Shown here piece after piece: positions 3,295-62,459 of a stretch of 64,000 bases of DNA. A program made the translations under genes and the position numbers. The notes below the pieces were generated by a model. That model did no database searches. It was not told the DNA's origin and saw only the letters and a program-made list of their open reading frames with translations. The DNA lies in IMG/VR virus record IMGVR_UViG_3300033066_001466, positions 1 to 64,000 of that record. One strand, written 5' to 3'. Source of the DNA: a virus (lineage: Duplodnaviria; Caudoviricetes). Every line of letters begins with the position of its first letter. Positions within the stretch are counted from its first letter, which is position 1.

Positions 3295-3305
3295 CGGCGT
3301 ATATT
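3295..3305 (+). promoter_or_regulatory. CGGnGTATA motif copy (candidate phage late promoter)
   Basis: CGGCGTATATT, intergenic, 42 nt before ATG 3337. Confidence 0.6.
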
Positions 3306-3336
3306 AATTACGTACCCTATAATCGGAGAAAGATAA

Positions 3337-3882
3337 ATGCTTTTAACTACTCAAGCCGCGATTTCTGGCGTTTCACCTAAGAAAAATGCTGGTACAGTTG
3401 TAATGGGCGGCAATGTTCCTGCCGGAAATCCCGCTACTTCTTTCCCCGGATTTGTTCCTACAAATACTCAGTCCGGCTTACTTGGCTCACAAACTCCTTA
3501 TAATTATATTACTGTGGCTGCTGCTAATGCTACAACTTTGTATCTACCTTCGGGTATTATTAGTGGTACACTAGTTGCTAACGATAGAGATGACTGCATC
3601 ATGTATTACAGTCAAAAACGAGATTTGGCTGGTGTAACTGTTGCCGCAGTTGGAATTCCTCTTGCTGGGCCAATCGAACAGCCTGCATTAACTACTTCTG
3701 GCAGTTTAGTGAGTTATCCTAGTGGCTGGTCACAATCTGGGCAACTCTTGGCTCCTGCCGTGGTTTTAGGTGCAAATTATGCTATTAATGCCACAAATGA
3801 TAGAGGAGCTACGCTTGCAGGCCGCTATGTTTTCACTTTAGGGGCTGCTCCTACATCTGGCGCATCACCAACGCGCGTCTAG
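3337..3882 (+). CDS. Gly/Ala/Thr/Ser-rich hypothetical protein, possible virion accessory protein
   Basis: Small-residue-rich composition like the minus-strand structural genes; own motif promoter and terminator. Confidence 0.55.
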   Translation: MLLTTQAAISGVSPKKNAGTVVMGGNVPAGNPATSFPGFVPTNTQSGLLGSQTPYNYITVAAANATTLYLPSGIISGTLVANDRDDCIMYYSQKRDLAGVTVAAVGIPLAGPIEQPALTTSGSLVSYPSGWSQSGQLLAPAVVLGANYAINATNDRGATLAGRYVFTLGAAPTSGASPTRV

Positions 3883-3892
3883 TTTAAAATTT

Positions 3893-3916
3893 GGCTCTCG
3901 CAAGAGAGCCTTTTTT
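3893..3916 (+). terminator. Rho-independent terminator
   Basis: GGCTCTC-GCAA-GAGAGCC followed by TTTTTT (GNRA loop). Confidence 0.85.
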
Positions 3917-3935
3917 GTGTACAATGGGGCATCAA

Positions 3936-4832
3936 ATGAAGATTCTATTAGCGATTCTACTATCATTAGGACTTTTTGTAGGCGGAATAGCAGAAGAAAC
4001 TGTTCCTGTAGTTAATAAAGTTCAAAATGTAGCTGGGGTCAAAATGGCCGAAATCAAGCAAACCTTATCTGGTTTGGATAAAGAAGTTCCTATTGGCACC
4101 CTAATTAAAGTTAAGGTATCTCCATTATCTGCTCCAGCAAACAGTGTTATCACAGCAATTTACAACTACGCCTTGTTAGAAAACGGAAAGCTTTCCAATA
4201 ATATCGAAATTTTAACAGGAAGCGAACGAACAGGAGACCCAGCAAGAACTGGTTCTGACATGATTTTTGCTGTAAAAGATAATACCACCAAATACCAAGT
4301 GATTTTTTCAGTCAACTATATTGAAACTAAAGTTGGTACTTCTGAAATTATTAGTGTTCAAAAAGCACCCATTCAAATCTATGATATTAAAGTTTCAGGA
4401 TATGTGCCTCCAGTTCCAGGACCAGACGTAATTCCTGATGGAAATTTTGGCCTAATTCGTTCAGTTTATTTAGAATCAATTAAATTAACACTTGATAAAG
4501 ATAAGAAAATTAAGCTTTTTACTAATCTATCTAATGCTTTTTCTGGTATGTCTTCCAAGATTGCCGCAGGAGTCTATAAAGATGATAATGATGACGCAAA
4601 TCAAGTAAAACGAGTAGAAGACTTCCTTAAAGAAACAAAAGCTCTCGTTAATCAAGCTATTACTGATTCTGGCGTTGAATTAAAAGTGCTAGACGGTAAT
4701 GTAGATGTAGTAGTAAAATCGGCTTTGGAAAAGGCCTATGAGACTGGTAAGATGCGAAAATTTGCCGACTATCAAGCAGCTTGGGCAGAAATTGCCGAAG
4801 GCTATAGACTAGCTTTAAAATCACAACAATAG
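3936..4832 (+). CDS. exported protein with signal peptide and Pro-rich linker
   Basis: MKILLAILLSLGLFVGGIA signal peptide at ATG 3936 (track's TTG 3891 lies in the terminator); PPVPGPDVIP linker between a beta-rich and a helical domain. Confidence 0.7.
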   Translation: MKILLAILLSLGLFVGGIAEETVPVVNKVQNVAGVKMAEIKQTLSGLDKEVPIGTLIKVKVSPLSAPANSVITAIYNYALLENGKLSNNIEILTGSERTGDPARTGSDMIFAVKDNTTKYQVIFSVNYIETKVGTSEIISVQKAPIQIYDIKVSGYVPPVPGPDVIPDGNFGLIRSVYLESIKLTLDKDKKIKLFTNLSNAFSGMSSKIAAGVYKDDNDDANQVKRVEDFLKETKALVNQAITDSGVELKVLDGNVDVVVKSALEKAYETGKMRKFADYQAAWAEIAEGYRLALKSQQ

Positions 4833-4869
4833 ACTCAAATGCCGTCGAGCTTAATATAGGAGTTATGAT

Positions 4870-8111: not shown

Positions 8112-11100
8112 ATGTCGGTTTATACTTTTGAAGAAGCGTTTGAAGCCAGTAAAGTTTACTTTAAAGATGATGCTTTAGCGGCTGACGTTTTTTTAAATAA
8201 GTATGCTCTTAGAGATGAGGATGGGAATATTCTGGAAAAAAACCCAGATGATATGCATAAAAGAATAGCTAAAGAGTTTGCCAGAGTTGAATCTAAGAAG
8301 TTTAAAGAACCAATGACTGAAGAATTTATTTATGACCTAATTAAAGGTTTTAAGTATATTGTTCCTCAAGGTTCTCCTATGTATGGGATTGGAAATACTT
8401 TTAGAGAGATTAGTCTTAGTAATTGTTTTGTTGTGGATTCTCCCAAAGACAATTATTCGTCTATTGTTGATACTGATAAACAAATTGCTAATATTAGTAA
8501 AAGACGAGGAGGAGTAGGGGTCAACCTTGATAATCTTAGACCTACAGGTTCAAAAGTCAATAATGCGGCTAGAACTTCGACAGGCATTGTTTCTTGGATG
8601 GAAAGATATTCAAATACAATTAGAGAAGTAGGTCAAAACGGTCGTCGTGGTGCCCTTATGGAAACAATTTCTATTAAGCATCCTGACTCAGTAAATTTAG
8701 ATGAAGGTTCAGTAGATTTTTGTTCAGTCAAAAGGGATAAAACCAAAGTAACTGGAGCTAATGTATCTATTAAAATTGATGATGACTTCATGAATAAAGT
8801 TGTCACAAAAGAAAAATATACACAACAATGGCCAGTAAATACAGAAAAACCAGTTCTAACTAAAGAGATTGATGCTGAAAAAGCTTGGAATAAGATTATT
8901 GATAATGCCCATAATTCGGCAGAACCTGGAATATTATTTTGGGATAATGTACTTAAATATGGCGTAGCTGACATATATGAAAAATATAGAAGTGAAGCCG
9001 TTAACCCTTGTCAGCCTTCTTGGGCCTCGATATTGACACAAAAAGGATTATCAACTATTGGGGAAATTAAGGTAGGAGATAAGATTTGGTCAGAGTCTGG
9101 ATGGACGACTGTTGTTAAAAAATGGTCAACTGGTAAAAAAAGAGTTTTTGCATATAGAACAACATTTGGTACATTTTATGGGACAGAAAACCATAGAGTT
9201 GTATCGGATGGAGAAAAGATTGAAGCAATAGATGCAGAAAGTATTGACTTACTAAGAGGGCCAGACCTACCTATCCAAAGTTTTAAGATTTTAGGTGATT
9301 CTCAATGTATTATGGATGGCCTAGTATTTGGGGATGGAAGCGTTCACAAAGCCTCTAATAATTTAGTTTACCTATGTGTTGGCGAAGACGATAATGATTA
9401 TTTTAATGATACACAACTAAAAGACTTAATTATAAAGAAAAGAGACGGATTAGCTAAATACGCTTGGGAAGTTAAAACAAACATACATCATTCGGAGCTA
9501 CCTAAAACATTTGATAGAAAAATTCCTTCACGATATATTGTTGGTACTCAACAAGAAGTTATTGGATTTTTAAGAGGTCTTTATTCTGCCAATGGAAGCA
9601 TTTGTGGTGGCAGAGTAACTTTAAAAGCATCATCATTCGATGTTATCAAACAAGTTCAATTAATGCTTTCCTCTATAGGAATATCATCATACTACACTAC
9701 TAATAAGCCTAGTGTTGTAGAGTTTGAAAATGGGGAGTACGAATGCAAACAAAGTTACGACTTAAATATAACTAGAGATATAAATAAATTTTCTTATCAT
9801 ATTGGATTCATACAAAAGTACAAAAACATTAAAGTTGAAGAAAGTCTTAACTCTAGAAAAAGACAAAAATATGAAAAAACTCCAAAGGATATTGTTTCAG
9901 TAGATGAAATTTCTTACGAAGAAGTGTTTGATATCACGGTAGATAATGAAAGTCACACTTATTGGACAGGTGGACTAAATGTATCTAATTGTGCTGAGCT
10001 TACTCTTTGTGCCCTTGATTCCTGTCGTCTTCTCTTACTTAATACATTTTCTTTTGTTCAGAATCCTTTCACTAAAGACGCTTATTTTGATTTTAAGGCT
10101 TTTTATCAGTATTCTCAGTATGCTCAACGATTGATGGACGATTTGGTTGACTTAGAGGCTGAATGCGTGGAAAGAATTCTAGCAAAAATTCGCAAACAGT
10201 ACAACGAAGGTGATATTGAGCTACGCGATGAAATTAAGATGTGGGAAAAGATTCTTGATTTAAATTGTAATGGTCGAAGGACTGGTACTGGAGTTACAGC
10301 TATTGGTGATTGCTTGGCTGCATTGGGTATTAAATATGGTTCAGAAGAATCAATCTCTATGGTTGAAGAAATTTATAAATGCTTAAAGCTTGGTTGTTAT
10401 CGCTCTAGTGTGGATATGGCTAGGGAATTAGGAACTTTTGATGCTTGGAATCCAGAATTAGAAAAAAACAATCCATTCATAGAGCAACTTAAAAATGATA
10501 GAATTCATCTATGGGATAGTTGTATGGTGGATGGAAGATTTATTTATGACGAAATGATGAAAGTTGGTAGACGAAATGTTGCTTTATTAACCACTGCTCC
10601 TACTGGCTCAGTTTCCATTCTTACTCAAACTACTGGTGGAATTGAACCTCTGTTTATGATTGGTTACAAACGACGAAAGAAAATTAATCCTAATGATGAT
10701 AATACCAGAGTCGATTTTGTGGACCAAAACGGCGATAGTTGGCAAGAGTTTATGGTTTACCACGAAAAAGTTAAGATGTGGATGGAGAAAACTGGCGAAA
10801 CCGACATATCTAAAAGCCCTTGGTTTGGGGCTTGTGCAAACGACATAGATTGGGTCAATAGAGTTAAATTTCAAGGAGCGGCTCAAAAACATGTGTGTCA
10901 TGGGATTAGTTCGACGATTAACCTGCCTAACGATGTTACAAAAGAAAAAGTATCAGAAATTTACATTCAGGCTTGGAAGAGTAAGTTAAAAGGAATTACA
11001 GTTTATAGAGATGGCTGTAGAACTGGAGTCTTGGTGGCTGATAAGAAGCCCGAAATTAGCTCACAGGATGCCATCAAACGACCTAAAGAGTTAGATTGTG

Positions 11101-11555
11101 ATATCTATTATTATAATGGAATGGGGGTTGTGGTGGGCCTTTTAGGAGGTTTACCATATGAAGTCTTCTTAATTAATGACTTTAAGCCCAAAAAACAACA
11201 AAAAACTGGCAAGATTTCCCGAATTAAACAAAAACATTACAAGCTAACAGATGGTGACGAAACCCTATTAGAGAATGCAGAGGAACACTGCTCTCAAGAG
11301 CAAGAGGCTATGGCCCGATTAGCCTCATTGTCTTTAAGACATAATGTGACTTTAGATTATATTGTTACTCAACTCAGCAAAGTAAAAGGTTCTATGTTTG
11401 ATAGTTGTAGGGCTATTTGTAAAGCTTTAAAGAATTATTTGAAAGATGGCTCCACTATAAAATCCGAGAGATGTGATTCATGTGGTGGAAAAAATGTAGT
11501 TCATCTTGAGGGGTGTTTGACCTGCTCTGATTGCGGTATTTCTAAATGTGGTTAA
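8112..11555 (+). CDS. nrdJ: class II (B12-dependent) ribonucleotide reductase, intein-containing
   Basis: PQGSPMYGIG, SLSNCFV, RRGGVG, GRRGALM, NP[intein]CAE, RRTGTG, TTAPTGSVS, STINLP, KGITVYRDGCR, C-terminal Zn ribbon CDSC..CLTCSDCGISKC. Confidence 0.9.
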   Translation: MSVYTFEEAFEASKVYFKDDALAADVFLNKYALRDEDGNILEKNPDDMHKRIAKEFARVESKKFKEPMTEEFIYDLIKGFKYIVPQGSPMYGIGNTFREISLSNCFVVDSPKDNYSSIVDTDKQIANISKRRGGVGVNLDNLRPTGSKVNNAARTSTGIVSWMERYSNTIREVGQNGRRGALMETISIKHPDSVNLDEGSVDFCSVKRDKTKVTGANVSIKIDDDFMNKVVTKEKYTQQWPVNTEKPVLTKEIDAEKAWNKIIDNAHNSAEPGILFWDNVLKYGVADIYEKYRSEAVNPCQPSWASILTQKGLSTIGEIKVGDKIWSESGWTTVVKKWSTGKKRVFAYRTTFGTFYGTENHRVVSDGEKIEAIDAESIDLLRGPDLPIQSFKILGDSQCIMDGLVFGDGSVHKASNNLVYLCVGEDDNDYFNDTQLKDLIIKKRDGLAKYAWEVKTNIHHSELPKTFDRKIPSRYIVGTQQEVIGFLRGLYSANGSICGGRVTLKASSFDVIKQVQLMLSSIGISSYYTTNKPSVVEFENGEYECKQSYDLNITRDINKFSYHIGFIQKYKNIKVEESLNSRKRQKYEKTPKDIVSVDEISYEEVFDITVDNESHTYWTGGLNVSNCAELTLCALDSCRLLLLNTFSFVQNPFTKDAYFDFKAFYQYSQYAQRLMDDLVDLEAECVERILAKIRKQYNEGDIELRDEIKMWEKILDLNCNGRRTGTGVTAIGDCLAALGIKYGSEESISMVEEIYKCLKLGCYRSSVDMARELGTFDAWNPELEKNNPFIEQLKNDRIHLWDSCMVDGRFIYDEMMKVGRRNVALLTTAPTGSVSILTQTTGGIEPLFMIGYKRRKKINPNDDNTRVDFVDQNGDSWQEFMVYHEKVKMWMEKTGETDISKSPWFGACANDIDWVNRVKFQGAAQKHVCHGISSTINLPNDVTKEKVSEIYIQAWKSKLKGITVYRDGCRTGVLVADKKPEISSQDAIKRPKELDCDIYYYNGMGVVVGLLGGLPYEVFLINDFKPKKQQKTGKISRIKQKHYKLTDGDETLLENAEEHCSQEQEAMARLASLSLRHNVTLDYIVTQLSKVKGSMFDSCRAICKALKNYLKDGSTIKSERCDSCGGKNVVHLEGCLTCSDCGISKCG
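9009..9989 (+). mobile_element. intein (327 aa) with LAGLIDADG homing endonuclease in NrdJ
   Basis: Starts C-QPSWAS after NP; block B GTENHR; LAGLIDADG blocks DGLVFGDG and FLRGLYSANG; block F VFDITVD; ends VSN followed by the extein Cys (CAE). Confidence 0.92.
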
Positions 11556-11590: not shown

Positions 11591-11619
11591 TTGACAGCTT
11601 CGCGAGTTCATGGTAGGAT
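11591..11619 (+). promoter_or_regulatory. sigma70-type promoter
   Basis: TTGACA-N17-TAGGAT with extended -10 TG. Confidence 0.75.
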
Positions 11620-14224: not shown

Positions 14225-14235
14225 CGGAGTATATA
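14225..14235 (+). promoter_or_regulatory. CGGnGTATA motif copy
   Basis: CGGAGTATATA, 43 nt before the endonuclease ATG. Confidence 0.6.
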
Positions 14236-14267
14236 CATGGTAGACCAATAGTTTTTATGGATTAACC

Positions 14268-15104
14268 ATGTCAAAATTAAGTGACCAACAAAAAATTGAT
14301 TTAGTTCAAGAGTATACTACACAAATAGTTACTGCTACAGATTTAGCTAATAAATATGGAGTTTCTTTAACATCTATTTCTAGCATTTTGAAAAATAGAG
14401 GAATAAAAAGAAGAATTCCACGAAAATATCCATTTAATGAACAATATTTTGATGTTGTCGATAATGAAGATAAAGCATATATATTAGGATTTTTGTATGC
14501 GGATGGCTGTAATTATGAAAAAAGAGGCTCAATAATAGTAGCCTTACAAGAGACTGATGCTGAAATACTTAATCTTATAAAAGAAAAAATAGGTCTTAAA
14601 AAACCTCTTATGTTAAGAGATAGGTCTAAAGACAAAGACTCAAATAAAAGGAAAAATCAATTAGCTTTAGAGATTTGCAGTAGACATTTTTCTAATTCTT
14701 TAGTACAATTAGGTTGTTTTCAAGCTAAGTCCTTAGTATTGAATTTTCCAACCAAAGAACAAGTACCAAGTCATCTTATGAGTCATTTTATGAGAGGGTA
14801 TTTCGATGGTGATGCAAATTTTCTCAAATATGAACATAAAGATAGAAATTGTCAAAACTATAAAATAAGTTTCGGGTCCAGTAACATATTTTGTAAATCT
14901 TTTGCTGATTTTATAAAGGAAAATTTTAATATTCATACATCAATTTATCATCCAAAAGACAAACATGAATTATATGACACAGTTATGATAAGTGGAAGGA
15001 TTCAATGTAAAAAAGTTTTAGACTGGGTCTATAAAGACGCAACAATATACCTTAAAAGAAAATACGATAAATATCTAGAAATTTTCGGTGAACAAAATGG
15101 CTAA
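14268..15104 (+). CDS. free-standing LAGLIDADG homing endonuclease
   Basis: N-terminal HTH; YFDVVDNEDKAYILGFLYADG and FMRGYFDGD motifs. Confidence 0.85.
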   Translation: MSKLSDQQKIDLVQEYTTQIVTATDLANKYGVSLTSISSILKNRGIKRRIPRKYPFNEQYFDVVDNEDKAYILGFLYADGCNYEKRGSIIVALQETDAEILNLIKEKIGLKKPLMLRDRSKDKDSNKRKNQLALEICSRHFSNSLVQLGCFQAKSLVLNFPTKEQVPSHLMSHFMRGYFDGDANFLKYEHKDRNCQNYKISFGSSNIFCKSFADFIKENFNIHTSIYHPKDKHELYDTVMISGRIQCKKVLDWVYKDATIYLKRKYDKYLEIFGEQNG

Positions 15105-21775: not shown

Positions 21776-21804
21776 CGGAGTATATAGTCTCTATAGGAGA
21801 CTAT
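21776..21804 (+). promoter_or_regulatory. CGGnGTATA motif plus RBS-sequestering hairpin
   Basis: CGGAGTATATA then ATAGTCTC-TATAG-GAGACTAT pairing over the AGGAG RBS. Confidence 0.7.
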
Positions 21805-21805
21805 T

Positions 21806-22507
21806 ATGCGAAAAAAGAAACCTGTTATTAGCGGTTGGCAAAAAGATTTTATCAGATTAGCTTTTCCATATCATTCTGCACAAGATATAGCTGATATTCT
21901 AGGTGTACAAAGACACATTGTTAGAGAATTTGCACAGCCTGAAAAATTACAAAAAGAATCTCCTTATCTTGAGAATGGAAGAAAAATAAATAAATTAACT
22001 GTTTTAGAATTATTACCGACTAGAGGTAAAAAGAATTTATTATATAAATGTCAATGCGATTGTGGGAAAATAGTTAATGTTAGAAGCTCTTTAATTAAGA
22101 AGGGCGGAACTAAAGCTTGTAATAGATGTTATGGAAAACAGTCTAGAATAGATTCATACGCATATAAAGATACTAATAAAGCAGTTTGGTCAAGAATGAT
22201 GTCACATGCTTATGAAAGAGGAATAGAATTTAATATCAAAATAGAAGATTTATATGAAATGTTAATAAAACAAGATAAAAAATGTAAATTCAGTGGTTTA
22301 CCAATAAGTTTAGATTGTAATTCTAATGGAGATAAAAGGACAGCATCTTTAGACAGAATAGATAAAAATAAACCATATGAAAAAGGAAATGTACAGTGGG
22401 TTCATAAAAAAATCAATTTCATGAAAAATTCACTATCTGACGAAGAATTTCTTGAGATGTGTAAACTTGTTGTAGAAAATCAGAATAAGGCCGAAAAAGA
22501 CAAATAA
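21806..22507 (+). CDS. HNH-like (SLDRID family) homing endonuclease
   Basis: YKCQCDCGK..CNRC; CKFSGLPI; ASLDRIDKNKPYEKGNVQWVHKKINFMK. Confidence 0.75.
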   Translation: MRKKKPVISGWQKDFIRLAFPYHSAQDIADILGVQRHIVREFAQPEKLQKESPYLENGRKINKLTVLELLPTRGKKNLLYKCQCDCGKIVNVRSSLIKKGGTKACNRCYGKQSRIDSYAYKDTNKAVWSRMMSHAYERGIEFNIKIEDLYEMLIKQDKKCKFSGLPISLDCNSNGDKRTASLDRIDKNKPYEKGNVQWVHKKINFMKNSLSDEEFLEMCKLVVENQNKAEKDK

Positions 22508-22512: not shown

Positions 22513-22541
22513 TTGACAGACTTCGATAGTTATGTTATAGT
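22513..22541 (+). promoter_or_regulatory. sigma70-type promoter for dut
   Basis: TTGACA-N17-TATAGT with extended -10 TG. Confidence 0.8.
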
Positions 22542-23210: not shown

Positions 23211-23240
23211 CGGCGTATACCTATAATAGGAGGTATATGC
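23211..23240 (+). promoter_or_regulatory. CGGnGTATA motif plus RBS-sequestering hairpin
   Basis: CGGCGTATACC; GCGTATACCT (23213-22) pairs with AGGTATATGC (23231-40), overlapping the AGGAGG RBS. Confidence 0.7.
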
Positions 23241-23241: not shown

Positions 23242-23931
23242 ATGTTTTTTAAGACGTTTTTAAATGAAGAGAAAACAAAAGAATTCTTTGGATATTATCC
23301 AGTTGGACTATCTAGAGGTTCAAATAAAAAAGTGGTGTGTGAATGCACCAGTTGTAAAAAATTAATTATAAGGTCATATAAAAATTATCATATGGACCAT
23401 CAGTGTTCTGTAGTTAGAGATGGTAAAAAAAGATGTTTTAAATGCTTAGAATGGAAAGAATTTAAATTTTTTAATAAAAACTCTACTCTATCTGGTAAAG
23501 TTTCAAAAATGTGTAAGGAATGTTTTAGGAATTATAAGCCAGTAATAAAATATGAAGTTAGTAGGTCAACAAGATTGAGTTCTTCTCTTGATTCTGGAGA
23601 TATAGAATTTTATCTAAAGAGAAGAATTCCATGTTTAAAGTCAAATGCTAAAAAAAAGAAACTTGAATATGATTTAGACTATGAGTACTTACTAACACTA
23701 TGGAATAATCAGAAGGGAATATGTTATTATACTGGACTAGAAATGAAAAATGATATGAAACAAAAAAAATATCAAGCTTGGAACTCTCCATCGTTAGATA
23801 AATTAAACCCAAGTAAAGGCTATACAAAAGGTAATGTAGTTTGGTGTATAAGCTCTGTTAACTCTTTTAAACAATCATTGACAGAAGAACAATTTCTAGA
23901 AATGCTTAAACAAATAGTATGGAAACAATAG
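23242..23931 (+). CDS. HNH-like homing endonuclease (SLDKLN variant)
   Basis: CTSC, CFKC, CKEC zinc motifs; CYYTG; SPSLDKLNPSKGYTKGNVVWCISSVN. Confidence 0.7.
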   Translation: MFFKTFLNEEKTKEFFGYYPVGLSRGSNKKVVCECTSCKKLIIRSYKNYHMDHQCSVVRDGKKRCFKCLEWKEFKFFNKNSTLSGKVSKMCKECFRNYKPVIKYEVSRSTRLSSSLDSGDIEFYLKRRIPCLKSNAKKKKLEYDLDYEYLLTLWNNQKGICYYTGLEMKNDMKQKKYQAWNSPSLDKLNPSKGYTKGNVVWCISSVNSFKQSLTEEQFLEMLKQIVWKQ

Positions 23932-23938: not shown

Positions 23939-25801
23939 ATGTCTTGGGTCAATCTTCACTCTAAGTCTACAGGCTCCTTACTCTCTGGGGCCTTAACTAT
24001 TGAAAATCTTGTAGCCCGAAATAAGACATTAGGCTACAAAAGTGTTTCCATAATGGACCACGGCTCAGTAAGTCTAGCCTATGAATTACAGTTGGAATGT
24101 AAAAAAGCTGGTCTAAAGCCAATTTTTGGTATTGAAGCATTCGTTTGTGAGCAAGATAGCCACATAATGGATGAGTCAAATAGGAAATTAACACGAATTG
24201 GAATTATATCCAAGAATTTGACGGGATGGAAGTCCTTATGTAAAGCTGTCAGTCAGAGCAATCGAAACCACTACAAAAAACCGAGACTTGCTCTCGATGA
24301 ATGGGCTGCTTATGCCGAAAATAACTGGATTATCATTACTGGATGGCCTGGAACACAAGCTCATGGATTATCGCCAGTAGATTTAGCCACCCATTTAGAT
24401 AGTTTAAAGGTTCTGTTTGGCCCCGAAAATGTATTTCTTGGCATTCAGGCTATCAGTGATACAAAAGAAAATATCAGTACGTTAAGAAAGACTGGCCAAA
24501 ATACAAATACACCTTGCGTAGCCATTGCAGATAGTTATTATGGTGAATCTGAGGATAGCTCTGACCAACGAGTTCTTCTTTGCTCATTACTGAAAACATC
24601 TTTGACGAAGGTTCGGGCTTTTTTAGACACTGAAGAAGCTAAAGATATAGGAGTGGCTCGATTTTTTGAATCAAACTCTTATTATATTCCCGAATTATCA
24701 GAGATTGAGGAACTACATAAGGGTTATGAGGACGAAATTAAAAATGCTTTAGTAATTGATTCCCTCTGTGAAACGTACTCATTGAGCAATAATCCTATTC
24801 TGCCGGAATTTCAAGTTGGACTAGACGCTTACGAAGAATTAACTAATCTTTGTAGGAAAGGATGGGCCGAATTACTCAATTTTAAGAAAAGCGACCCTCG
24901 CCACGACATTTATAGGGATAGAATTAAGGAAGAATTAAGAGTTATTAAAGGGGCAAATCTATCTAATTATTTTTTGATTGTAGCCGATATATGTAAGTTT
25001 GCTAGAGATAATGGAATTTTAATGGGAGCAGCGCGTGGAAGTTCAGGTGGATGCTTAATTTCCTATTTAGCTGGAATAACCAAAATTGACCCAATTCCGT
25101 ACAATTTGTTATTTGGTCGGTTTTTTGATGAATCTAGAAAAAATTCTTTGCCAGATATTGATTTAGATTTTCAGCCCTCAAAACGTGAAGAAGTAATTCA
25201 ATATATTAAATCTAAGTATGGCGAAGACTCAGTATGTAAGATTGCAACTTTTGGTAGATTACAAGGTCGTGGGGCTATTAAAGAAGTCTTACGTGTGCAT
25301 GAGGCTTGCGATTTTTCAACAATGAACGAAATAACCAAGTATATTCCTGACGAAGCAAAAATTGCAGACGAACTTCAAGAAATGTCAGAAGATGACCACG
25401 AAAATGCCAAAATTTTGTATTGGGCCGTAACAAATAATGCTAAACAGTTAGCTCCTTGGGTGAAACTTGAAAAGGACGGCTCTTATTCGGGCGAACTAGG
25501 TAAGTATTTTGCCCAAGCTATTAGAATGGAAGGTTTGTATCGTCAAATTGGTGAGCATGCTTCTGGAATTATTGTTACTCCAGGCAATGTTGATGATTAT
25601 TGTCCTTTGATTAAATCTAAACGTGGGATTATTGCAGGCATGCCATATCCAGACCTTGAAGCTATGGGATTAGCAAAAATTGATATCCTTGGCGTTAATG
25701 TTTTAGATAAATTAAAAATGATTTTATTAGCAGCAGAAACAGGCGACATTTATGGCGATATTGGAAATTGTGTCAACAACAACCCATCAAATATCATCTA
25801 A
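23939..25801 (+). CDS. dnaE: DNA polymerase III alpha (DnaE), N-terminal half: PHP + palm
   Basis: DHG, GIE, GAARGSSGG, DP....LLFGRF, PDIDLDF, HASG, KIDILG. Confidence 0.9.
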   Translation: MSWVNLHSKSTGSLLSGALTIENLVARNKTLGYKSVSIMDHGSVSLAYELQLECKKAGLKPIFGIEAFVCEQDSHIMDESNRKLTRIGIISKNLTGWKSLCKAVSQSNRNHYKKPRLALDEWAAYAENNWIIITGWPGTQAHGLSPVDLATHLDSLKVLFGPENVFLGIQAISDTKENISTLRKTGQNTNTPCVAIADSYYGESEDSSDQRVLLCSLLKTSLTKVRAFLDTEEAKDIGVARFFESNSYYIPELSEIEELHKGYEDEIKNALVIDSLCETYSLSNNPILPEFQVGLDAYEELTNLCRKGWAELLNFKKSDPRHDIYRDRIKEELRVIKGANLSNYFLIVADICKFARDNGILMGAARGSSGGCLISYLAGITKIDPIPYNLLFGRFFDESRKNSLPDIDLDFQPSKREEVIQYIKSKYGEDSVCKIATFGRLQGRGAIKEVLRVHEACDFSTMNEITKYIPDEAKIADELQEMSEDDHENAKILYWAVTNNAKQLAPWVKLEKDGSYSGELGKYFAQAIRMEGLYRQIGEHASGIIVTPGNVDDYCPLIKSKRGIIAGMPYPDLEAMGLAKIDILGVNVLDKLKMILLAAETGDIYGDIGNCVNNNPSNII

Positions 25802-26126
25802 ACGTATTTCTCAGATAATGGCCTCATTAGCCATCTCAAATAATCTTTATAAAATAGTCGATAAACCAACAGAATTAGTATATGTGCATTGCGGCAAATT
25901 GTCAAAGATGAAAAAATTAGAAGACAACATAGGAAAGGTCTTCCAAATTGGTGAAAGTCGTGCTATAATCATGTATCCTTTACAATACTTCATCAATAAG
26001 GGCGAAAGTTATATTGGTGGATTTCTTTATAGTTTGGAGATAGCAAAAAATGTCATGGTGGAGCAAAAAAGATGGGAATACTCAAACGGATACATCATCA
26101 GTAGTCCTAAAAGAGTTACAAACTAA
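25752..26126 (+). CDS. hypothetical protein between the dnaE halves
   Basis: 124-aa ORF with AGG RBS. Confidence 0.55.
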   Translation: MAILEIVSTTTHQISSKRISQIMASLAISNNLYKIVDKPTELVYVHCGKLSKMKKLEDNIGKVFQIGESRAIIMYPLQYFINKGESYIGGFLYSLEIAKNVMVEQKRWEYSNGYIISSPKRVTN

Positions 26127-26403
26127 GTTTAGCGAATTAGAAGATAAGCATAAGAAGTTACGTAAGAAGTATAAAAAAGTAACAGAAAATCTTGATATTA
26201 TCGACGAAGTCATTCATGGATATCTAGAGGAACAAGCTGTTGCTAAATTCTTATTGTTTGCAATTGCTGTTAAATGCGGCGGAAAGTTAGAACTCTGTAA
26301 CCATGATATTGAAACAGCTAAAAAATTAGAAGCAGAACATACATTAGATTTCGCCGAAGGCGAAGATTCGGTAATTTACTCTATTAAGAGATTGGAAAAA
26401 TAA
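26050..26403 (+). CDS. coiled-coil hypothetical protein between the dnaE halves
   Basis: 117-aa ORF with GGAG RBS. Confidence 0.6.
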   Translation: MSWWSKKDGNTQTDTSSVVLKELQTKFSELEDKHKKLRKKYKKVTENLDIIDEVIHGYLEEQAVAKFLLFAIAVKCGGKLELCNHDIETAKKLEAEHTLDFAEGEDSVIYSIKRLEK

Positions 26404-27053
26404 TGGCTAATATTGTAGTTTATGATTTAGAAACAACCGGAATTGATGCTACTAAAGTATTTCCTATTCAATTTGCAGCACTTCCTATTGATGGAGTTAA
26501 TCTAAAAATTCGGGAAGATAACGTTTTTAATCAAATGTGTAAACCTCCAGATTTTGATTACATGATTGATTTTACTGATAGTAATGCAGCCAGTAAACAA
26601 GGTCTATGGAAGTTTCATGCTGAACATAGAGGAGTTTCTGTAGAGCAAATAATTGAATTAGTACGAACATCTCCTCCTATGGAACTTGTTTTTGAGCAGT
26701 TTCAGCAATTTATTGCTCAATTTAAAGTTAAGTCTCAAAATCCTGTTCTTGGAGGTTTTAATATTGCTAATTATGATAACGTTATTATTAATCGTCTCTT
26801 AAAAGGTAAAAAAGGCCCTTGGAATCCAATCTTTTATCTTGATGCTATGCAGATGTGTTATACATGGCTAAGGTCTGCCGAGCTAAAATCTCATAGTTTG
26901 GACAATTTGCGACAATACTTTGGTCTAAGTAAGGGTGGCCACGAAGCACTAAAGGACTGTAAAGACACAGCTATTATTCTGACCCGATTTCTTCAGTATC
27001 AGCAACAATTAGCTATTGGTAAGTCATATTTTGCTAATGCTTTCAAATGTTAG
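26403..27053 (+). CDS. DEDDh 3'-5' exonuclease (DnaQ/epsilon-like)
   Basis: ExoI YDLETTG, ExoII GFNIANYD, ExoIII HEALKDC. Confidence 0.88.
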   Translation: MANIVVYDLETTGIDATKVFPIQFAALPIDGVNLKIREDNVFNQMCKPPDFDYMIDFTDSNAASKQGLWKFHAEHRGVSVEQIIELVRTSPPMELVFEQFQQFIAQFKVKSQNPVLGGFNIANYDNVIINRLLKGKKGPWNPIFYLDAMQMCYTWLRSAELKSHSLDNLRQYFGLSKGGHEALKDCKDTAIILTRFLQYQQQLAIGKSYFANAFKC

Positions 27054-39273: not shown

Positions 39274-39295
39274 AACTCAAACGCCGTTAGGCTTA
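39274..39295 (+). repeat. 22-bp repeat copy A (inverted partner at 57943..57964)
   Basis: AACTCAAACGCCGTTAGGCTTA; 21/22 identical to the reverse complement of 57943..57964. Confidence 0.85.
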
Positions 39296-44411: not shown

Positions 44412-44473
44412 TTTCGTTCCTTTTAATCGCCAATTAGTTATAAATTTCTAAGCTTGACGACGATTAAGTCAAA

Positions 44474-51709: not shown

Positions 51710-52597
51710 CTATTTTGTTTCTGCCAAAGCTAACAAGTCTTTTTCTTTTATTTTAGCTAGCTCTGCTTCATATTTAGCTAATTCTTCTTTATACCCTTCA
51801 TCTAAGATTGGGTTTCCCTCATTATCTAAAAATGGAACTGGTTTAATTAATTCTTTTGGCTTACTAAGTAGTTCACCATCTTCTCCTAATAGTTCACCAT
51901 CCGAATTGATTGGATTTCCATCTTTGTTAATAAATCGCCCTTCTTTATCAATAAAATTAAATCTCTTAAAGAATGCGTTTTCAGGATTGGTATCAGTACT
52001 TTTTTGATAATCACCCAAAACTTTCATTTGGTATGACAGAAAAGCTCTAGTTACCACTACATATTTTTCAGCATTTTCTTCGGTTAAAACCGTTGAAGCA
52101 TCAAAATCTTCATAGCTACTAAAAACTCTCTCTCCACTATCTTTATACACCGTTGTAGCATATAGAAGGTAGTTTAGACGTTCGTTTTCAGAATAGCCCT
52201 CTACTGTGTTTTGTTGAGCTTCAGCAAATACTGTATTTAAACTAAGGATTTTAGCCCTTAATTCGATACATCTCATAGCCGCCCTAAACATCGTACCTTC
52301 ACTTTTGTCAGTTGGTCCACCAAGCTTAAAGGATTCGCGTTTTTTAGGATTAGTGAGGATATCCTCGTTCTTAGCAAGCTCTGCTCTTAAATCTCGTAAT
52401 TCAGCAGCCTTTTTTTCATCCCAAGATGATTCTTGCAAGAGTTTTGCTGCATCATTGGCTAATGGCAATTTATCCTGAAGGGCCTTCCAATAAGCCTTTG
52501 CCCGTATTTTAGTAGCTTCTTTGATTTCGGAAGCCTTTGGCTCGCGAACTAAAACTTCTTTTTCTACGCCACCAATCATTACTTTAAAAGATTCCAT
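51710..52597 (-). CDS. putative tail assembly chaperone
   Basis: Immediately upstream of the tape measure; EVLVREP..SEI N-terminus; acidic helical protein. Confidence 0.5.
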   Translation of the reverse strand: MESFKVMIGGVEKEVLVREPKASEIKEATKIRAKAYWKALQDKLPLANDAAKLLQESSWDEKKAAELRDLRAELAKNEDILTNPKKRESFKLGGPTDKSEGTMFRAAMRCIELRAKILSLNTVFAEAQQNTVEGYSENERLNYLLYATTVYKDSGERVFSSYEDFDASTVLTEENAEKYVVVTRAFLSYQMKVLGDYQKSTDTNPENAFFKRFNFIDKEGRFINKDGNPINSDGELLGEDGELLSKPKELIKPVPFLDNEGNPILDEGYKEELAKYEAELAKIKEKDLLALAETK

Positions 52598-54105: not shown

Positions 54106-54699
54106 CTAGGCCCATTTATCCCAATATAGTGGTGACTCTTGTTTAGTTTGATTTCTTTGACAATTTGAAATTTCATGACACCACTGAATAAATTCTTCGT
54201 GTGGTTTATTACCTTTTGTAAATTGCAAATCCTTATGAATCCATTGAACATTTCCTTCGATATATCCTTTTGTACTATCAATTCTATCTAAAGATGCAGT
54301 TTGATTAATTCTATTTTTCTTATAACTTCTAGTAAATTGTAATGGTCTTCCAGAATAAGCACATTTTCCATTTTGTTTCTTAAATATATTATCAACGTAT
54401 TCTAGACTTACTGCGAATTCCATATTTCTTTCCTTAATGGCTTTTCCTTTTATTCCATTATAATACCTGCAAGTTACACTTCCAAATGGGCAATATTCAA
54501 CCATCCTACATTTAATACACTGATTATTATTTCTACAATTTTCTGGAGTTTTTTGATAAATATTTTTACACTTTGGACATTTTACATTAACTAAACTTTT
54601 CCAATTAATTATTTTACTAGTTTTAGTTGTGACTTTTTCTGTCCATGCTTCCACAACTTCCCAACCATTAATAATTTGTCCAATTTTAAATTTTGTCAT
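54106..54699 (-). CDS. HNH-like (SLDRID family) homing endonuclease
   Basis: CPKC..CIKC; CAYSG; ASLDRIDSTKGYIEGNVQWIHK; AAGGA RBS 7 nt before ATG 54699. Confidence 0.75.
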   Translation of the reverse strand: MTKFKIGQIINGWEVVEAWTEKVTTKTSKIINWKSLVNVKCPKCKNIYQKTPENCRNNNQCIKCRMVEYCPFGSVTCRYYNGIKGKAIKERNMEFAVSLEYVDNIFKKQNGKCAYSGRPLQFTRSYKKNRINQTASLDRIDSTKGYIEGNVQWIHKDLQFTKGNKPHEEFIQWCHEISNCQRNQTKQESPLYWDKWA

Positions 54700-54718
54700 T
54701 ACCATATCCTTAAAATTA

Positions 54719-54735
54719 GGGGCCAAAATAGCCCC
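54719..54735 (-). terminator. hairpin or terminator after the tail tube gene
   Basis: GGGGCTA-TTT-TGGCCCC followed by TAATTTT. Confidence 0.5.
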
Positions 54736-54773
54736 ATATAATCAAAGCATAATATATATTACAACCAAGTCAA

Positions 54774-55952
54774 TTAATTGTAATATGAGCCACTTCCAAT
54801 TCCGCTTGTAATAGTGTATCCATTTTGTCCAGCCCCGAAACGAGGGTCTGCGGGGTGAAGAACGGAAAAATTATTCTTATTGGTATAGGTATAAGTTACA
54901 GTCATATTGCTACCATCCGTGCCGCCCCCACCCACGCTAAAAGAAGTCAACCGATTTTTAGTACCAGTTGAAATTCTTGTACCATCTCGAAGAGCAACTC
55001 TGATGGATTCATTTCGAGTATTTTCACCAGTCGAATACAAACCACCTTCAAGAGCTTCAATAAAGTCACCACTAACTGCCATAATCTCAATTTCAGTATT
55101 ACAGTCGATGGTAGGATTAACTGATTTTACATAGGGGAATTTACAGCCCAACTCGAAAATATCTTGACGAGTAATACCAGCAGTGAATTTAATCGACTGC
55201 ATTTTGACTGTATAGTCACAACCACTTACTCCCGCAGTAGAAACATTTTTACCATTAGAATCAATGCCAGGAATATTTCGTGGGAAAGTACTGCCAGAAG
55301 GATAAACTGGTAATCCGTTAGCATCATTACCAATAGAAGCAGTTACATAATCGAATAAAACATCTTCACGACGATTAATGCCCGAAGCAGCAGAAGGAGC
55401 GTCAGGAGTAGTGAAATTAGTGCCCGTGAAAAACCCAGTCAACATATTAAATGCTGAAGCTTCAGAAGCACGATAGGCCGAAGAATACCACTTACGAGTA
55501 TTACCTACGAAAGATAGAGATTCTCGGCTAGGGCCTTGAGTATTAATTTGATAAGAAAGATTGGTAGGATAGAAGCCGCTCATCAAGCAAGCAAAATCAG
55601 CAGTGCCTGAAGCATAAGCTTGAGTTTCTGGATAAATTGACATACCAAGATGACATCGTGCAGTAGACCGACCTAAAAGGTCAGGAGTAGAAGCGTCTTT
55701 AGTAGCTAAGTGCCAAGCTAAAGGATATCCGTCCAATACCTTATCTACAGAGACTGTGAAATCAGAAATTTCTTCCATCTGTTCATATGGAGTTGCCTGA
55801 CCTAGCTCATAAATGCTAGTGATAGGAACGTTACCATTCATACCAACAGATTGAGCACCATGAACTACGTGACCACTAGCAAAAGCAGTGAAATTTAGGC
55901 CCGGAGCAATCAAAAGTTGTTCAGCATTAAAAATTACGCGATTAGATGCCAT
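54774..55952 (-). CDS. major tail (tube) protein
   Basis: 392 aa; GAQSVG...IYELGQ..YE..E..D..VSVDKVLDG; position after the neck genes; own motif promoter. Confidence 0.65.
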   Translation of the reverse strand: MASNRVIFNAEQLLIAPGLNFTAFASGHVVHGAQSVGMNGNVPITSIYELGQATPYEQMEEISDFTVSVDKVLDGYPLAWHLATKDASTPDLLGRSTARCHLGMSIYPETQAYASGTADFACLMSGFYPTNLSYQINTQGPSRESLSFVGNTRKWYSSAYRASEASAFNMLTGFFTGTNFTTPDAPSAASGINRREDVLFDYVTASIGNDANGLPVYPSGSTFPRNIPGIDSNGKNVSTAGVSGCDYTVKMQSIKFTAGITRQDIFELGCKFPYVKSVNPTIDCNTEIEIMAVSGDFIEALEGGLYSTGENTRNESIRVALRDGTRISTGTKNRLTSFSVGGGGTDGSNMTVTYTYTNKNNFSVLHPADPRFGAGQNGYTITSGIGSGSYYN

Positions 55953-55983: not shown

Positions 55984-55994
55984 TATATACGCCG
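55984..55994 (-). promoter_or_regulatory. CGGnGTATA motif copy
   Basis: CGGCGTATATA, 42 nt before ATG 55952. Confidence 0.6.
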
Positions 55995-57942: not shown

Positions 57943-57964
57943 TAAGCCTAACGGCGATTGAGTT
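57943..57964 (-). repeat. 22-bp repeat copy B, part of an AGCCTAA-N12-TTAGGCT hairpin (57945..57970)
   Basis: Minus strand AACTCAATCGCCGTTAGGCTTA. Confidence 0.85.
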
Positions 57965-59024: not shown

Positions 59025-59078
59025 TTTTAAACCTCTGGGTGTACATTAAGTATATTACCCGCGAACTATATAGAAACG

Positions 59079-60171: not shown

Positions 60172-60630
60172 TTATAGAGAGTCGATTGCAACGGTAGCAA
60201 AACCATTACCATCTTTAGCAGTTAGGAAACGACCAACTTGGGCATAACCTAATAGCTGAGTAGGAGACATATAGCCACCAGAGTGAATATAAGCTGGATT
60301 ACCGGCTGTTGGAGTGCCAGAAATATAATTGGTGTTTACCCAACCGTGCTTGATAATCGAAATCTTAGAGCCAGTCTGAGCTTCGTTAGGATTAAAAGGA
60401 TTCAACTTCTGACGGGTTAGGTCATAATTCTGAACCTTCGTTTCGCAAATACCTAGAGGAATAGCACCAGAAGCACTAGAGCCAACATAGGCATAACGAT
60501 TAGCGTGCTCTAAAGCAGCACCAGAATAAGTTCCAGTTGCAGCGATTACACACTGACCATCGTCAATAGTGCCAGAACTGAAATATGTGATGTGACGTTC
60601 GCAGCTATAATCGGTGTTCTTAATAGCCAT
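60172..60630 (-). CDS. head decoration / cement protein
   Basis: 152 aa between scaffold and MCP; GWVNTNYISGTPTAGNPAY...G. Confidence 0.6.
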   Translation of the reverse strand: MAIKNTDYSCERHITYFSSGTIDDGQCVIAATGTYSGAALEHANRYAYVGSSASGAIPLGICETKVQNYDLTRQKLNPFNPNEAQTGSKISIIKHGWVNTNYISGTPTAGNPAYIHSGGYMSPTQLLGYAQVGRFLTAKDGNGFATVAIDSL

Positions 60631-61283
60631 TAGTTAGTCTCCGTGTTCTTGACCTTAGCGAAAACGCTTTTTACAGCATTGAGTTTAGTTTTGTTTTTGT
60701 TTTCAACTTCAACATTAGCGACAACAAGAGTCTTTTCAGATTTCTTGGCATCTTCTAATTTCTTAGCGGCTTCAGCTTTGTTTTGGTCTTCAACATCTTT
60801 AGCAGCCTTAGCTAGTTCAGCCTTTTGAGCTTCAGTAGTTTTATCTTTGGAGGCAGCGAAAGCCTTAGTATTATCTAGCCAAGCCTTGAAATTTTCGTCG
60901 GTTAGAGCAGCAACCACAATGTAGTTCTTTTCTGCATCTGTATTGTCCATACCAAGGTTTTCCTTGATTAGACCAACTCGTTCAAGCTTTAGTTTTTCGG
61001 CTTTTGCTACGCTCAAATCTTTTTCAGTAGAAGCTACTTTAGTATTTGCTTCAGCTAAACTTTTGTTTGATTCGGCAAGCTTTTGCTCAAGAGCAACCTT
61101 TTCGTCAGTTACTTTCTTGATAGATTCATTAGCGGAAGCTAGTTCAGCCTTAACTTTATCTGATTCAGTTTTAGCTGTTTCAACTTCGGTCTTAGTTTTA
61201 GCAAGCTCATCGGCAATTTTCTTTGCCTCAACAAGCTGCCCTTCTAGTTCCGTAATTTTTGCTTGTGCTTCTTCGAGTTTCAT
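60630..61283 (-). CDS. nested scaffolding protein (internal in-frame start at Met293)
   Basis: Internal CGGCGTATATA motif, GGAG RBS and ATG 61283 giving MKLEEAQAKITELEGQL... (217 aa). Confidence 0.65.
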   Translation of the reverse strand: MKLEEAQAKITELEGQLVEAKKIADELAKTKTEVETAKTESDKVKAELASANESIKKVTDEKVALEQKLAESNKSLAEANTKVASTEKDLSVAKAEKLKLERVGLIKENLGMDNTDAEKNYIVVAALTDENFKAWLDNTKAFAASKDKTTEAQKAELAKAAKDVEDQNKAEAAKKLEDAKKSEKTLVVANVEVENKNKTKLNAVKSVFAKVKNTETN

Positions 61284-62159
61284 AATTTCTTCTCCGTTTA
61301 CAATAGGTATATACGCCGAATTAATTTCGGTTTCAAAAATATCTTCACTTTTTACATAATTTTGTGAAGCAAAAGCTAACGAATCTTTACTAAAAATAAC
61401 AGAAGCTGGATTAGCAGGGTCATCAGTGATACCTTTACCCGTGAATACAATATCACGCATTAGCATACCAATTTTAGCCCCTTGATATTCTCCGCTTCCT
61501 TTAAAAGCTCGTAATTTTTTGGTTAAAAATGAACTCTTTGCATCTCTTTTAATAATTTCTTGTTTGCCATCAGCTTTCATAACCGCATAGTCAAAATCAG
61601 AAAAAATACATTCCATACTAACGCATAGTTCACCATCAATAATTTTATCATATACTTTTTGTATAGATGCTGAATATTCTTCGTTTAGCTTCTGATATGC
61701 TTTAATATTGTATTTATAAAAACTGTCTACTGTAAGCAAATGAAAAATATCTGGTATGTCCATATTGGGCTTACCATCAATTTCACTAGGAATTAAAGCA
61801 GGAGTTTCTTCGTCTGTGATTGCAAATACACGATTTGTATGGCCAACTACTTTATCTGGCTTATGGTCAAGATTTGCTGGTTTATTAAGAGGAGTATATT
61901 TTGCTTTCCAAACTTCAAATTTATCAAATACTTGGTCATTCTTATTCCAAACACCAGCCGTTACTAAAATGGCCGGATATTCATATAAAAAGTCGTCCTC
62001 AATTAATTTACCAACTACTCCGCTAACATTTTTTACCTTACCAACATAATTCTTGTTTGTGGCAAGTATTACTGGGATATTATAGGTAATGGATAAATTG
62101 GCCCCAAAATACTGTTCGAGACCATCGTCTATCTCAGTTTGATAGATAATAGGTTTCAT
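60630..62159 (-). CDS. prohead protease fused to coiled-coil scaffold
   Basis: WNKNDQVF, NLDH..DKVVGH, VSMEC, FTGKGITDDPANPASVI, then K/E/A-rich coiled coil. Confidence 0.75.
   Translation of the reverse strand: MKPIIYQTEIDDGLEQYFGANLSITYNIPVILATNKNYVGKVKNVSGVVGKLIEDDFLYEYPAILVTAGVWNKNDQVFDKFEVWKAKYTPLNKPANLDHKPDKVVGHTNRVFAITDEETPALIPSEIDGKPNMDIPDIFHLLTVDSFYKYNIKAYQKLNEEYSASIQKVYDKIIDGELCVSMECIFSDFDYAVMKADGKQEIIKRDAKSSFLTKKLRAFKGSGEYQGAKIGMLMRDIVFTGKGITDDPANPASVIFSKDSLAFASQNYVKSEDIFETEINSAYIPIVNGEEIMKLEEAQAKITELEGQLVEAKKIADELAKTKTEVETAKTESDKVKAELASANESIKKVTDEKVALEQKLAESNKSLAEANTKVASTEKDLSVAKAEKLKLERVGLIKENLGMDNTDAEKNYIVVAALTDENFKAWLDNTKAFAASKDKTTEAQKAELAKAAKDVEDQNKAEAAKKLEDAKKSEKTLVVANVEVENKNKTKLNAVKSVFAKVKNTETN
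61308..61318 (-). promoter_or_regulatory. CGGnGTATA motif copy inside the protease gene
   Basis: CGGCGTATATA, 35 nt before internal ATG 61283. Confidence 0.6.
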
Positions 62160-62419
62160 TATTTAATCTTTTTAAATAAATCTTGAACCGGATTACTATT
62201 TTTATTTTTTGATGCATAACAGCACCATGTTTGGGTATTTACTATACCAGTATCATCTATCGTTTGTCGCATAATATTTAAGTCGTATTCTTCCTCATTT
62301 GGAGAACACTTACACAATGAAACGTTACTTATATTTGGAACTTCTTTTCCATCCATAAGGATTTGTGCAGTTTTTTCTTCTGAATCGTAAGCAATTATAA
62401 TTCTCATTGAATTAATCAT
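62159..62419 (-). CDS. hypothetical protein
   Basis: 86-aa ORF with AAGGA RBS; stop overlaps the protease start. Confidence 0.6.
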   Translation of the reverse strand: MINSMRIIIAYDSEEKTAQILMDGKEVPNISNVSLCKCSPNEEEYDLNIMRQTIDDTGIVNTQTWCCYASKNKNSNPVQDLFKKIK

Positions 62420-62448
62420 CCTTATCTAACTATAGGTTTTCTAGTAAG

Positions 62449-62459
62449 AATATACACCG
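62449..62459 (-). promoter_or_regulatory. CGGnGTATA motif copy
   Basis: CGGTGTATATT, 40 nt before ATG 62419. Confidence 0.6.

Follow-up and report, generated by a model that had tools for sequence, protein, structure and literature searches.

A candidate single-element promoter and a divergent sigma-like protein that may read it in an uncultured tailed phage

What reads a ten-base sequence that recurs ahead of head, tail and homing endonuclease genes in an uncultured tailed phage? The sequence, CGG[ACT]GTATA[TC] (CGGHGTATAY), was noticed in bases 1-64000 of the linear, 74,719-bp IMG/VR virus contig IMGVR_UViG_3300033066_001466, and we refer to that whole 64,000-nucleotide stretch as the window. 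The original prediction took the sequence for a late promoter of undescribed consensus, and supposed that the factor reading it is encoded outside the window. A candidate is indeed found there, 7.4 kb past the window: a sigma-like protein of 215 amino acids (aa), encoded at contig 71444-72091(-). We put the probability that the motif is a promoter read by this divergent phage sigma, together with the host core polymerase, at roughly three in four.

In the scheme that we favour, CGGnGTATAT would be a single-element promoter occupying about -17 to -8, with TATATn at -12 to -7 and no -35 box, and would be recognised by host core RNA polymerase carrying the phage sigma, a protein in which a sigma-2 domain appears to be followed by an insert with four cysteines and by a short helical domain at the C-terminus. 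Synthesis of the sigma by host RNA polymerase, from a TTGACA-16-TATATA promoter, would come first, and the sigma holoenzyme would then initiate about 7 nucleotides (nt) past the motif, at a purine after T. The units served would be the portal gene, a small head gene with the protease/scaffold gene, a nested scaffold product and the tail block, and also a distal gene for a 215-aa protein, one for a 181-aa protein on the opposite strand and three homing endonuclease genes. At the endonuclease genes the start sites would lie inside hairpins, such that only motif-initiated RNA exposes the ribosome site, and translation of the endonucleases would thereby be confined to the sigma-dependent phase.

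Placement and anatomy of the motif

The window holds eight copies of CGGHGTATAY, exactly those that the original prediction had listed, with motif starts at 3295, 14225, 21776 and 23211 on the plus strand and at 39273, 55994, 61318 and 62459 on the minus strand. Only 0.17 copies would be expected from 100 dinucleotide shuffles, none of which reached eight. The proposed spacing of 27-43 nt to the start codon was recovered on measurement (42, 43, 30, 31, 27, 42, 35 and 40 nt, in the same order), and a ninth exact copy lies beyond the window at contig 65758(-), in the gap between the terminase and portal genes, 44 nt before the portal-like gene. When any base is allowed at the fourth position (CGGnGTATA[TC]) the contig holds ten copies. 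Eight of them are in non-coding DNA (2.9% of the contig), and every one of these eight shares the orientation of the next gene, an arrangement for which a binomial estimate gives about 2e-11. Enrichment upstream of genes, which the original prediction had asked of the whole genome, is strong across the contig. The eight intergenic copies begin 27-44 nt, and end 17-34 nt, 5' of a start codon.

Four of the intergenic copies in the window would serve genes other than endonucleases. The plus-strand copy CGGCGTATAT at 3295-3304 has its predicted start at G3312, 42 nt before (counting from the motif start) the ATG of a 181-aa gene (3337-3882) that leads a run of secreted or unknown genes. On the minus strand, the copy at 39264-39273 (predicted start G39256) would serve a 215-aa gene at 38599-39246, distinct from the sigma gene; the copy at 55985-55994 (predicted start G55977) would serve a 392-aa gene at 54774-55952, which opens the tail block 5' of the tape measure gene; and the copy at 62450-62459 (predicted start A62442), directly 3' of an inserted TnpB gene, would serve an 86-aa gene at 62159-62419 and the 509-aa gene that follows it. 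Genes at 3337, 38599, 54774, 59123 and 62159 gave no PHROG, Pfam or NCBIfam match. Among the gene labels given originally, the three homing endonucleases are upheld by PHROG and the internal start in a scaffold-like gene also stands, while the label of tail tube finds no confirmation, the gene at 3337 matching no family.

The internal start concerns the copy at 61309-61318(-) (predicted start G61301), which lies inside the 509-aa gene at 60630-62159. Thirty-five nt on from the motif start, and preceded by a GGAGAA ribosome site, is an internal ATG in frame with the gene, at 61283, from which a nested C-terminal product (60630-61285(-), residues 293-509, 217 residues) with coiled-coil, scaffold-like character could be made. 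We read this copy as a probable internal promoter for the nested scaffold product. Relatives keep the internal ribosome site and ATG of the 509-aa gene, and GnGTAT[AT] lies no more than 45 nt 5' of the internal ATG in at least 10 of 49 distinct homologues of this gene. Two further hits within coding sequence, which had been put down as possibly due to chance, both exist and seem to differ in kind. The copy CGGGGTATAT at 31051-31060(+), with phoH 211 nt downstream, also shows the flank signature described below (T13, T16, R17, A19) and may be an internal promoter, a reading that we hold as uncertain; the near-copy CGGTGTATAA at 52143-52152(-), whose next start codon is 505 nt away, is probably a chance occurrence.

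Aligning the nine copies on their first C (column 0) reveals conservation beyond the ten-base core: eight of the nine have T at column 13 and eight have T at column 16, all nine have a purine at column 17, and seven have A at column 19. There is no conserved column in the -35 zone, in keeping with the earlier remark that these copies have no TTGACA partner. Placing TATATn (columns 5-10) at -12 to -7 puts the predicted +1 at column 17, with a pyrimidine before it. The nine aligned copies then have a promoter-type geometry, namely a -10-like hexamer TATATn, six bases, and Y(-1)R(+1), and Y(-1)R(+1) at such a distance is the usual start preference of bacterial RNA polymerase. In that numbering the G's of the motif stand at -16, -15 and -13 and its C at -17, while position -7 reads t, a, a, c, t, a, a, t and t across the nine copies. 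Primary sigmas have T at -7 among the two best conserved bases of their -10 box, and its lack of conservation here speaks against a primary sigma as the reader.

This bears on what we consider an unlikely alternative, though the strongest of three, in which the host primary sigma reads the motif as an extended -10 promoter, perhaps with a phage activator or appropriator, and the sigma-like protein does something else. TATAT is close to the TATAAT of a -10 box, the motif has conserved bases at extended -10 contact positions, Y(-1)R(+1) spacing would suit any bacterial holoenzyme, and the contig is incomplete. But in addition to the absence of a conserved T at -7, the upstream G's are at -16, -15 and -13 rather than forming a TG at -15/-14, and the host-type promoters of this phage all have a TTGACA-like -35 box. 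Boxes of this latter type (TTGACA or TTGACT, with 16-17 bp spacers) occur in other intergenic regions, at 11591, 13222, 22513 and 72331 on the plus strand, with host-type promoters on the minus strand at 72278 and 54773. Both of those that had been reported originally are present, TTGACA-17-TAGGAT at 11591-11619(+) and TTGACA-17-TATAGT at 22513-22541(+). That these -35-bearing boxes sit at intergenic regions other than those with the motif argues for two distinct promoter classes in this phage.

The three endonuclease genes offer a different kind of evidence. They are homing endonucleases of two unrelated families, and in RNA that reads through from upstream each of the three motif-linked genes has a hairpin over its ribosome site or ATG, which we compared with RNA beginning at the predicted start; structure was ranked among the start regions of 90 genes. 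At 14225-14234(+) (predicted start A14242, serving the homing endonuclease gene at 14268-15104), the hairpin at 14235-14271(+) has arms at 14235-14241 and 14265-14271 and covers the ATG, and its 5' arm runs up to the base preceding the predicted start; the folding energy is -10.3 kcal/mol for read-through RNA against -5.4 kcal/mol for predicted-start RNA, and this start region ranks 10th. The copy at 21776-21785(+) (predicted start A21793, serving an HNH gene at 21806-22507) has a hairpin at 21783-21804(+) that buries a GGAG ribosome site and whose 5' arm precedes the predicted start, with -13.3 against -1.0 kcal/mol and a rank of 4th. The third copy, a TATAC variant at 23211-23220(+) (predicted start A23228, serving an HNH gene at 23242-23931), has a hairpin at 23213-23240(+), of -15 to -17 kcal/mol, in which the motif itself is the 5' arm and the 3' arm covers part of AGGAGG; here the values are -15.1 and -0.2 kcal/mol, and the start region ranks 3rd. 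The two most structured start regions of all appear to be transcription terminators, and motif copies at structural genes have no such hairpins.

Transcripts that begin at the predicted start would lack the 5' arm, which is made of the bases separating the -10 box from +1 or, at 23211, of the motif, and so could not fold into the hairpin; the hairpins are therefore independent support for a start about 7 nt past the motif. Given the predicted start sites, all three endonuclease genes would carry a translational lock of the T4 type. The same arrangement is documented for I-TevI, I-TevII, I-TevIII and segB of T4 and for mobE of Aeh1 (PMC2988022). It is also conceivable, but in our view very unlikely, that the motif acts in RNA, as an endoribonuclease processing site or as a signal for translation within the 5' leaders of selected genes. 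The strand specificity of the motif, and the 17-34 nt from its end to the start codons, would suit a leader element, and cleavage within the hairpins would likewise free the ribosome sites. One would not, on that account, expect the motif to look like a -10 box with start-site spacing, to lie past terminators in a relative, or to be accompanied by a conserved sigma gene, and we identified no nuclease candidate.

A sigma-like protein at the head of the virion module

The promoter reading calls for a factor, and the open reading frame (ORF) at 71444-72091(-), the second gene of a leftward operon, is the one we propose. Pfam Sigma70_r2, searched alone against the contig, matches it at 71846-71986(-) with an E-value of 3.9e-4 and a score of 16.8 bits, which is below the curated cut-off of 24. 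The signal strengthens when the protein is taken as one of a family. Eight metagenome homologues are 51-65% identical to it, a 69-kb Logan contig carries a sigma that is 58% identical, and a profile of the homologues, run against a library of 1.84 billion proteins, gathered 831 clusters (at 50% identity) with E<=1e-3, nearly all of about 200 aa. Sigma70_r2 matches 89 of 123 aligned family members at E<=0.01 (best 1.1e-11), TIGR02937 (sigma70-ECF, for extracytoplasmic function) matches members at 4.3e-8, and the family profile finds SigR, SigW, SigB, CnrH and SigH in the PDB with E-values of 1e-4 to 2e-3; a profile of the 9 close homologues alone had no match in the PDB.

Structure prediction agrees with the profiles. 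The AlphaFold model had a mean confidence (pLDDT) of 64 at first and of 90 with a deeper alignment, and its residues 2-82 superpose on sigma domain 2 of ShbA, SigK, SigE, RpoS and sigma70 over 71-77 residues with a root-mean-square deviation (rmsd) of 2.2-3.1 Å and Z of 7.4-7.7 (7-7.7 across many sigma factors), although Z below 8 can reflect a common helical arrangement and is not decisive alone. Sigma factors make up most of the top 50 chains in the fold comparison, and Foldseek E-values were above 0.07 in both runs. Past the sigma-2 domain come four cysteines, of which C93 never varies, while C90, C107 and C116 occur in 90% of members or more. C-terminal helices at residues 141-207 are confidently modelled and align only within whole-sigma superpositions, with an rmsd of 10-21 Å. 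Together, profiles and model point to the 215-aa protein being an ECF-like member of the sigma-70 family.

The sigma operon is preceded by a TTGACA-16-TATATA promoter at 72278-72251(-), and with a promoter of host type ahead of its gene the sigma could be made first by host RNA polymerase. Near-copies of the motif, GGTGTATAAT, CGGGGTAAATAT and CAGCGTATAAT, are seen 5' of the sigma operon in three close relatives (contig 72303-72312(-), which is L001 12303-12312; L003 4620-4650; L004 1930-1945); they could reflect sigma autoactivation, or they may be ordinary -10 boxes. Next to the sigma gene, in 81 of 82 related loci, is a gene for a 280-aa protein (contig 70642-71484(-), or L001:10642-11484) whose residues 20-75 resemble a helix-turn-helix (PHROG 323, 'transcriptional regulator', E 3.7e-5), and which could be a small terminase or a sigma partner.

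We found no second sigma on the contig and no T7-type RNA polymerase by PF00940, a family that was also absent from the control genomes. A Sigma70_r4 match at 14268-14393 was rejected as a sigma; it is the helix-turn-helix of a homing endonuclease. The sigma and two distant family members had no tblastn match among GenBank phages (50,697 records), and the family is without a name in any source we searched, carrying partial automatic Pfam Sigma70_r2 tags only.

Conservation in relatives and likeness to known systems

If motif and sigma form a pair, one might expect relatives that have the sigma to keep the motif where the contig has it. IMG/VR scans with a single sigma or portal protein, or with a 9-sequence alignment, returned no relatives, and an alignment of 123 sigma sequences was too diverse for a locus scan, but a 12-sequence subset found loci; the counts for distant relatives below refer to 80 IMG/VR loci out of a clade of at least 351. 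Two metagenome loci with sigmas 40-49% identical have the same gene order as the contig, and in both of them CGGnGTATA occupies the corresponding position inside the scaffold gene, followed by GGAGAA and the in-frame ATG. In the close relatives CGGnGTATA is also found past the capsid-gene terminator and, in L003, before an HNH gene inserted elsewhere. At the former site, in window 59040-59075(-), our contig has CGGGTAATATA where the relative L004 has a perfect CGGGGTATAT, and we read CGGGTAATATA as a degenerate motif copy at the orthologous site.

The 80 distant loci, on contigs of up to 238 kb and with sigmas about 24-39% identical, keep the order sigma, 280-aa gene, nuclease, terminase, portal, scaffold, capsid. 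GTGTATA is the top enriched 7-mer upstream of their genes (51 against 2.5 expected), and in 537 unique upstream windows it occurs 33 times in the sense and 6 times in the antisense direction. Of 47 distinct sequences of the terminase-portal junction, which is orthologous to the site of the copy at 65758, 45 show GTGTA at a distance of 40-67 nt upstream of the portal ATG, as against 2.8% of random windows, and 38 fit GnGTAT[AT], so that the original expectation of the motif in relatives' upstream regions holds at orthologous positions. The exact CGGnGTATA, in contrast, shows no enrichment across the 80 distant loci, whose 1.27 Mb hold 16 copies. The comparison thus suggests that GnGTAT(A/T) is the family-wide core and that CGG is particular to the sublineage of this phage.

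Most genes of the distant relatives have no Shine-Dalgarno site, whereas this phage has such sites, a hint that host phyla differ while the phage sigma and the core stay the same. Conservation of the core in spite of this contrast makes the phage sigma a likelier reader of the motif than a host sigma, and counts against the alternative with the host primary sigma. The portal leaders of these relatives (L006-L085) have a peculiarity of their own: they lack a Shine-Dalgarno site, and the 40-50 nt from GTGTAT to the portal ATG hold two or three ATTACAAT-like words.

The relatives also bear on a third alternative, that the motif is part of a homing endonuclease cassette (a target, an operator or the end of a mobile element), with the other copies being footprints of past insertions. 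Endonuclease genes do follow three of the nine contig copies and one copy in L003, and I-TevI of T4 binds an operator that overlaps its own late promoter (PMC2988022). Yet six copies stand ahead of ordinary structural genes where no endonuclease is close by, the copy at the portal gene is kept in 45 of 47 relatives, the endonucleases come from two unrelated families, and relatives free of endonucleases largely keep the motif before portal and scaffold genes. We regard a cassette origin as the least probable of the three alternatives, and barely credible.

Several points weigh against a promoter read by the phage sigma. The assignment of the 215-aa protein rests on the family profile and the fold match, its own Pfam score being under the cut-off and its Z under 8; a sigma-4 domain was looked for with Pfam r4 and r4_2, which do not match the ORF. 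A fourth HNH gene (54106-54726) is preceded by a host-type TTGACT-16-TATGCT promoter (window 54746-54773(-)) instead of the motif, and its start region is strongly structured (-11.9 kcal/mol, rank 6/90). The large terminase gene and the genes preceding it have no motif copy, and TATAT is, as noted, similar to an ordinary -10 box. Many of the 80 distant loci are near-duplicates, and with their common ancestry this means that the counts show purifying selection, not an independent link between sigma and motif; their co-occurrence in relatives is equally expected from common ancestry alone. We infer the link itself from sequence, the exact start sites are predictions, and late timing is suggested by the functions of the served genes and the analogy to T4 only. 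Finally, at 49% completeness (CheckV), the contig could have another factor in its unseen part.

The closest analogue that we know of is the gp36 system of phiEco32, in which transcription starts 6-8 bp past a single element, tAATGTAtA, that gp36 recognises, with no conserved -35 (PMC8948821, PMC12276001). Both systems have a single -10-region element with a common GTATA core and no conserved -35, starts at similar distances (6-8 bp downstream there, a predicted 8 bp past GTATA here), and a phage sigma that is small (about 215 aa), highly divergent and expressed from a promoter of host type. They differ in that gp36 and the contig sigma have no detectable similarity (BLASTP E 5.2, hhalign probability 0.06%), such that the latter is not detectably a member of the gp36 family; in the upstream bases, tAAT there and CGGn here; in the conserved four-cysteine insert of the contig sigma; in that no gp79-like partner was identified here; and in the phages themselves, phiEco32 being a 77-kb E. 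coli podovirus whereas the contig phage has a 1995-aa tape measure protein.

T4 provides the second comparison, with a short, -10-only late promoter (TATAAATA) read by the sigma-2-like gp55, whose structure (7d7d_F) is among the fold matches of the contig sigma with Z 7.5, and with promoters placed inside hairpins such that only late transcripts expose the endonuclease ribosome site (PMC2988022). The promoter consensus is different, no gp33 or gp45-clamp coupling was identified here, and the contig sigma is ECF-like by profile and not a gp55 homologue by sequence. ECF (group 4) sigmas share with the contig sigma the region 2 profile and fold and a small, two-domain size. Their promoters have two elements, AAC at -35 and a box of CGT type at -10. 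The contig sigma departs from them in having no region 4 detectable by sequence, in the Cys4 module between its two domains and in scoring under the curated family cut-offs. By analogy, then, we suggest that the phage works like phiEco32 and T4 in late transcription, through an uncharacterised sigma family with no cultured representative. The original claim of an undescribed consensus therefore holds for the sequence and the sigma family, for which we found no paper (a literature search for the GTGTATA 7-mer gave nothing relevant), but not for the design, which is known from phiEco32 gp36 and T4 gp55.

We find it tempting to go further, although here we would give about even odds. An uncultured clade of tailed phages (at least 351 IMG/VR loci, 831 clusters, contigs to about 240 kb) may carry a sigma family of sigma-2 domain, conserved and probably zinc-binding Cys4 and short C-terminal domain, with its gene fixed at the head of the packaging and head module. 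Such sigmas would read a single-box GnGTAT(A/T) independently of the promoter type of the host, with Cys4 replacing sigma region 3 for lineage-specific bases 5' of -12, CGG in this phage. For this phage lineage, of which no member has been cultured, the result offers a transcription programme that can be tested, in which host RNA polymerase would make a phage sigma and the sigma would in turn activate head, tail and homing endonuclease genes by way of a 10-bp promoter. Short orthogonal pairs of sigma and promoter are among the parts that synthetic biology employs. The hairpin locks, for their part, would extend the T4 rule that endonucleases are translated from late transcripts only to an unrelated phage with a different promoter, which argues that the rule is a general solution and not a peculiarity of T4.

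Gene layout and other features of the contig

The contig has a GC content of 35.6% and two large blocks of genes. Plus-strand genes run from about 72.3 kb to the contig end and from 1 to 38.2 kb, and include a ribonucleotide reductase with an intein, a DnaB helicase, a primase, a two-gene DnaE polymerase, a glycosyltransferase, PhoH and a peptide deformylase. Minus-strand genes, from 72.3 kb down to 38.2 kb, form the virion module, which begins with a small ORF, the 215-aa sigma-like gene, the 280-aa gene, a GDP-mannose dehydratase and an ERCC4-like nuclease, continues with the large terminase with an intein, the portal, the inserted TnpB, the 86-aa gene and the 509-aa protease/scaffold-like gene, and ends with a 152-aa gene, a 334-aa gene in the capsid position, about ten further genes, the 1995-aa tape measure and large distal proteins.

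We found no near-identical DNA among GenBank phages, where the capsid protein had no tblastn match and the portal had weak matches, at about 22% identity, to Bacillus phages only. A search of a genome collection with the sigma alignment, or with TnpB as a clue to the host, returned no relatives.

Inteins with a LAGLIDADG domain interrupt the ribonucleotide reductase (window 8112-11555(+)) and the large terminase (contig 65767-69120(-)). The DnaE polymerase (window 23939-28709(+)) is split into genes of 620 and 548 aa, separated by about 1.26 kb that holds other genes, and a motif-bearing HNH gene sits directly 5' of the split genes. The TnpB-type transposase gene at window 62514-63620(-) (PHROG 506, E 4e-84), with which no tnpA was seen, separates the portal gene from the 86-aa head gene, two genes that in L004 overlap with nothing inserted.

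The contig also has a 21-bp dispersed repeat, ACTCAAnnGCCGTnnRGCTTA, present in 4 copies against 0.15 expected, at window 4833-4853(+), 39275-39295(+), 44449-44469(-) and 57943-57963(-). It could be an operator or an RNA element. All copies begin at, or shortly past, a stop codon, and the one at 39275 is opposite to local transcription and abuts the promoter-like motif at 39273.

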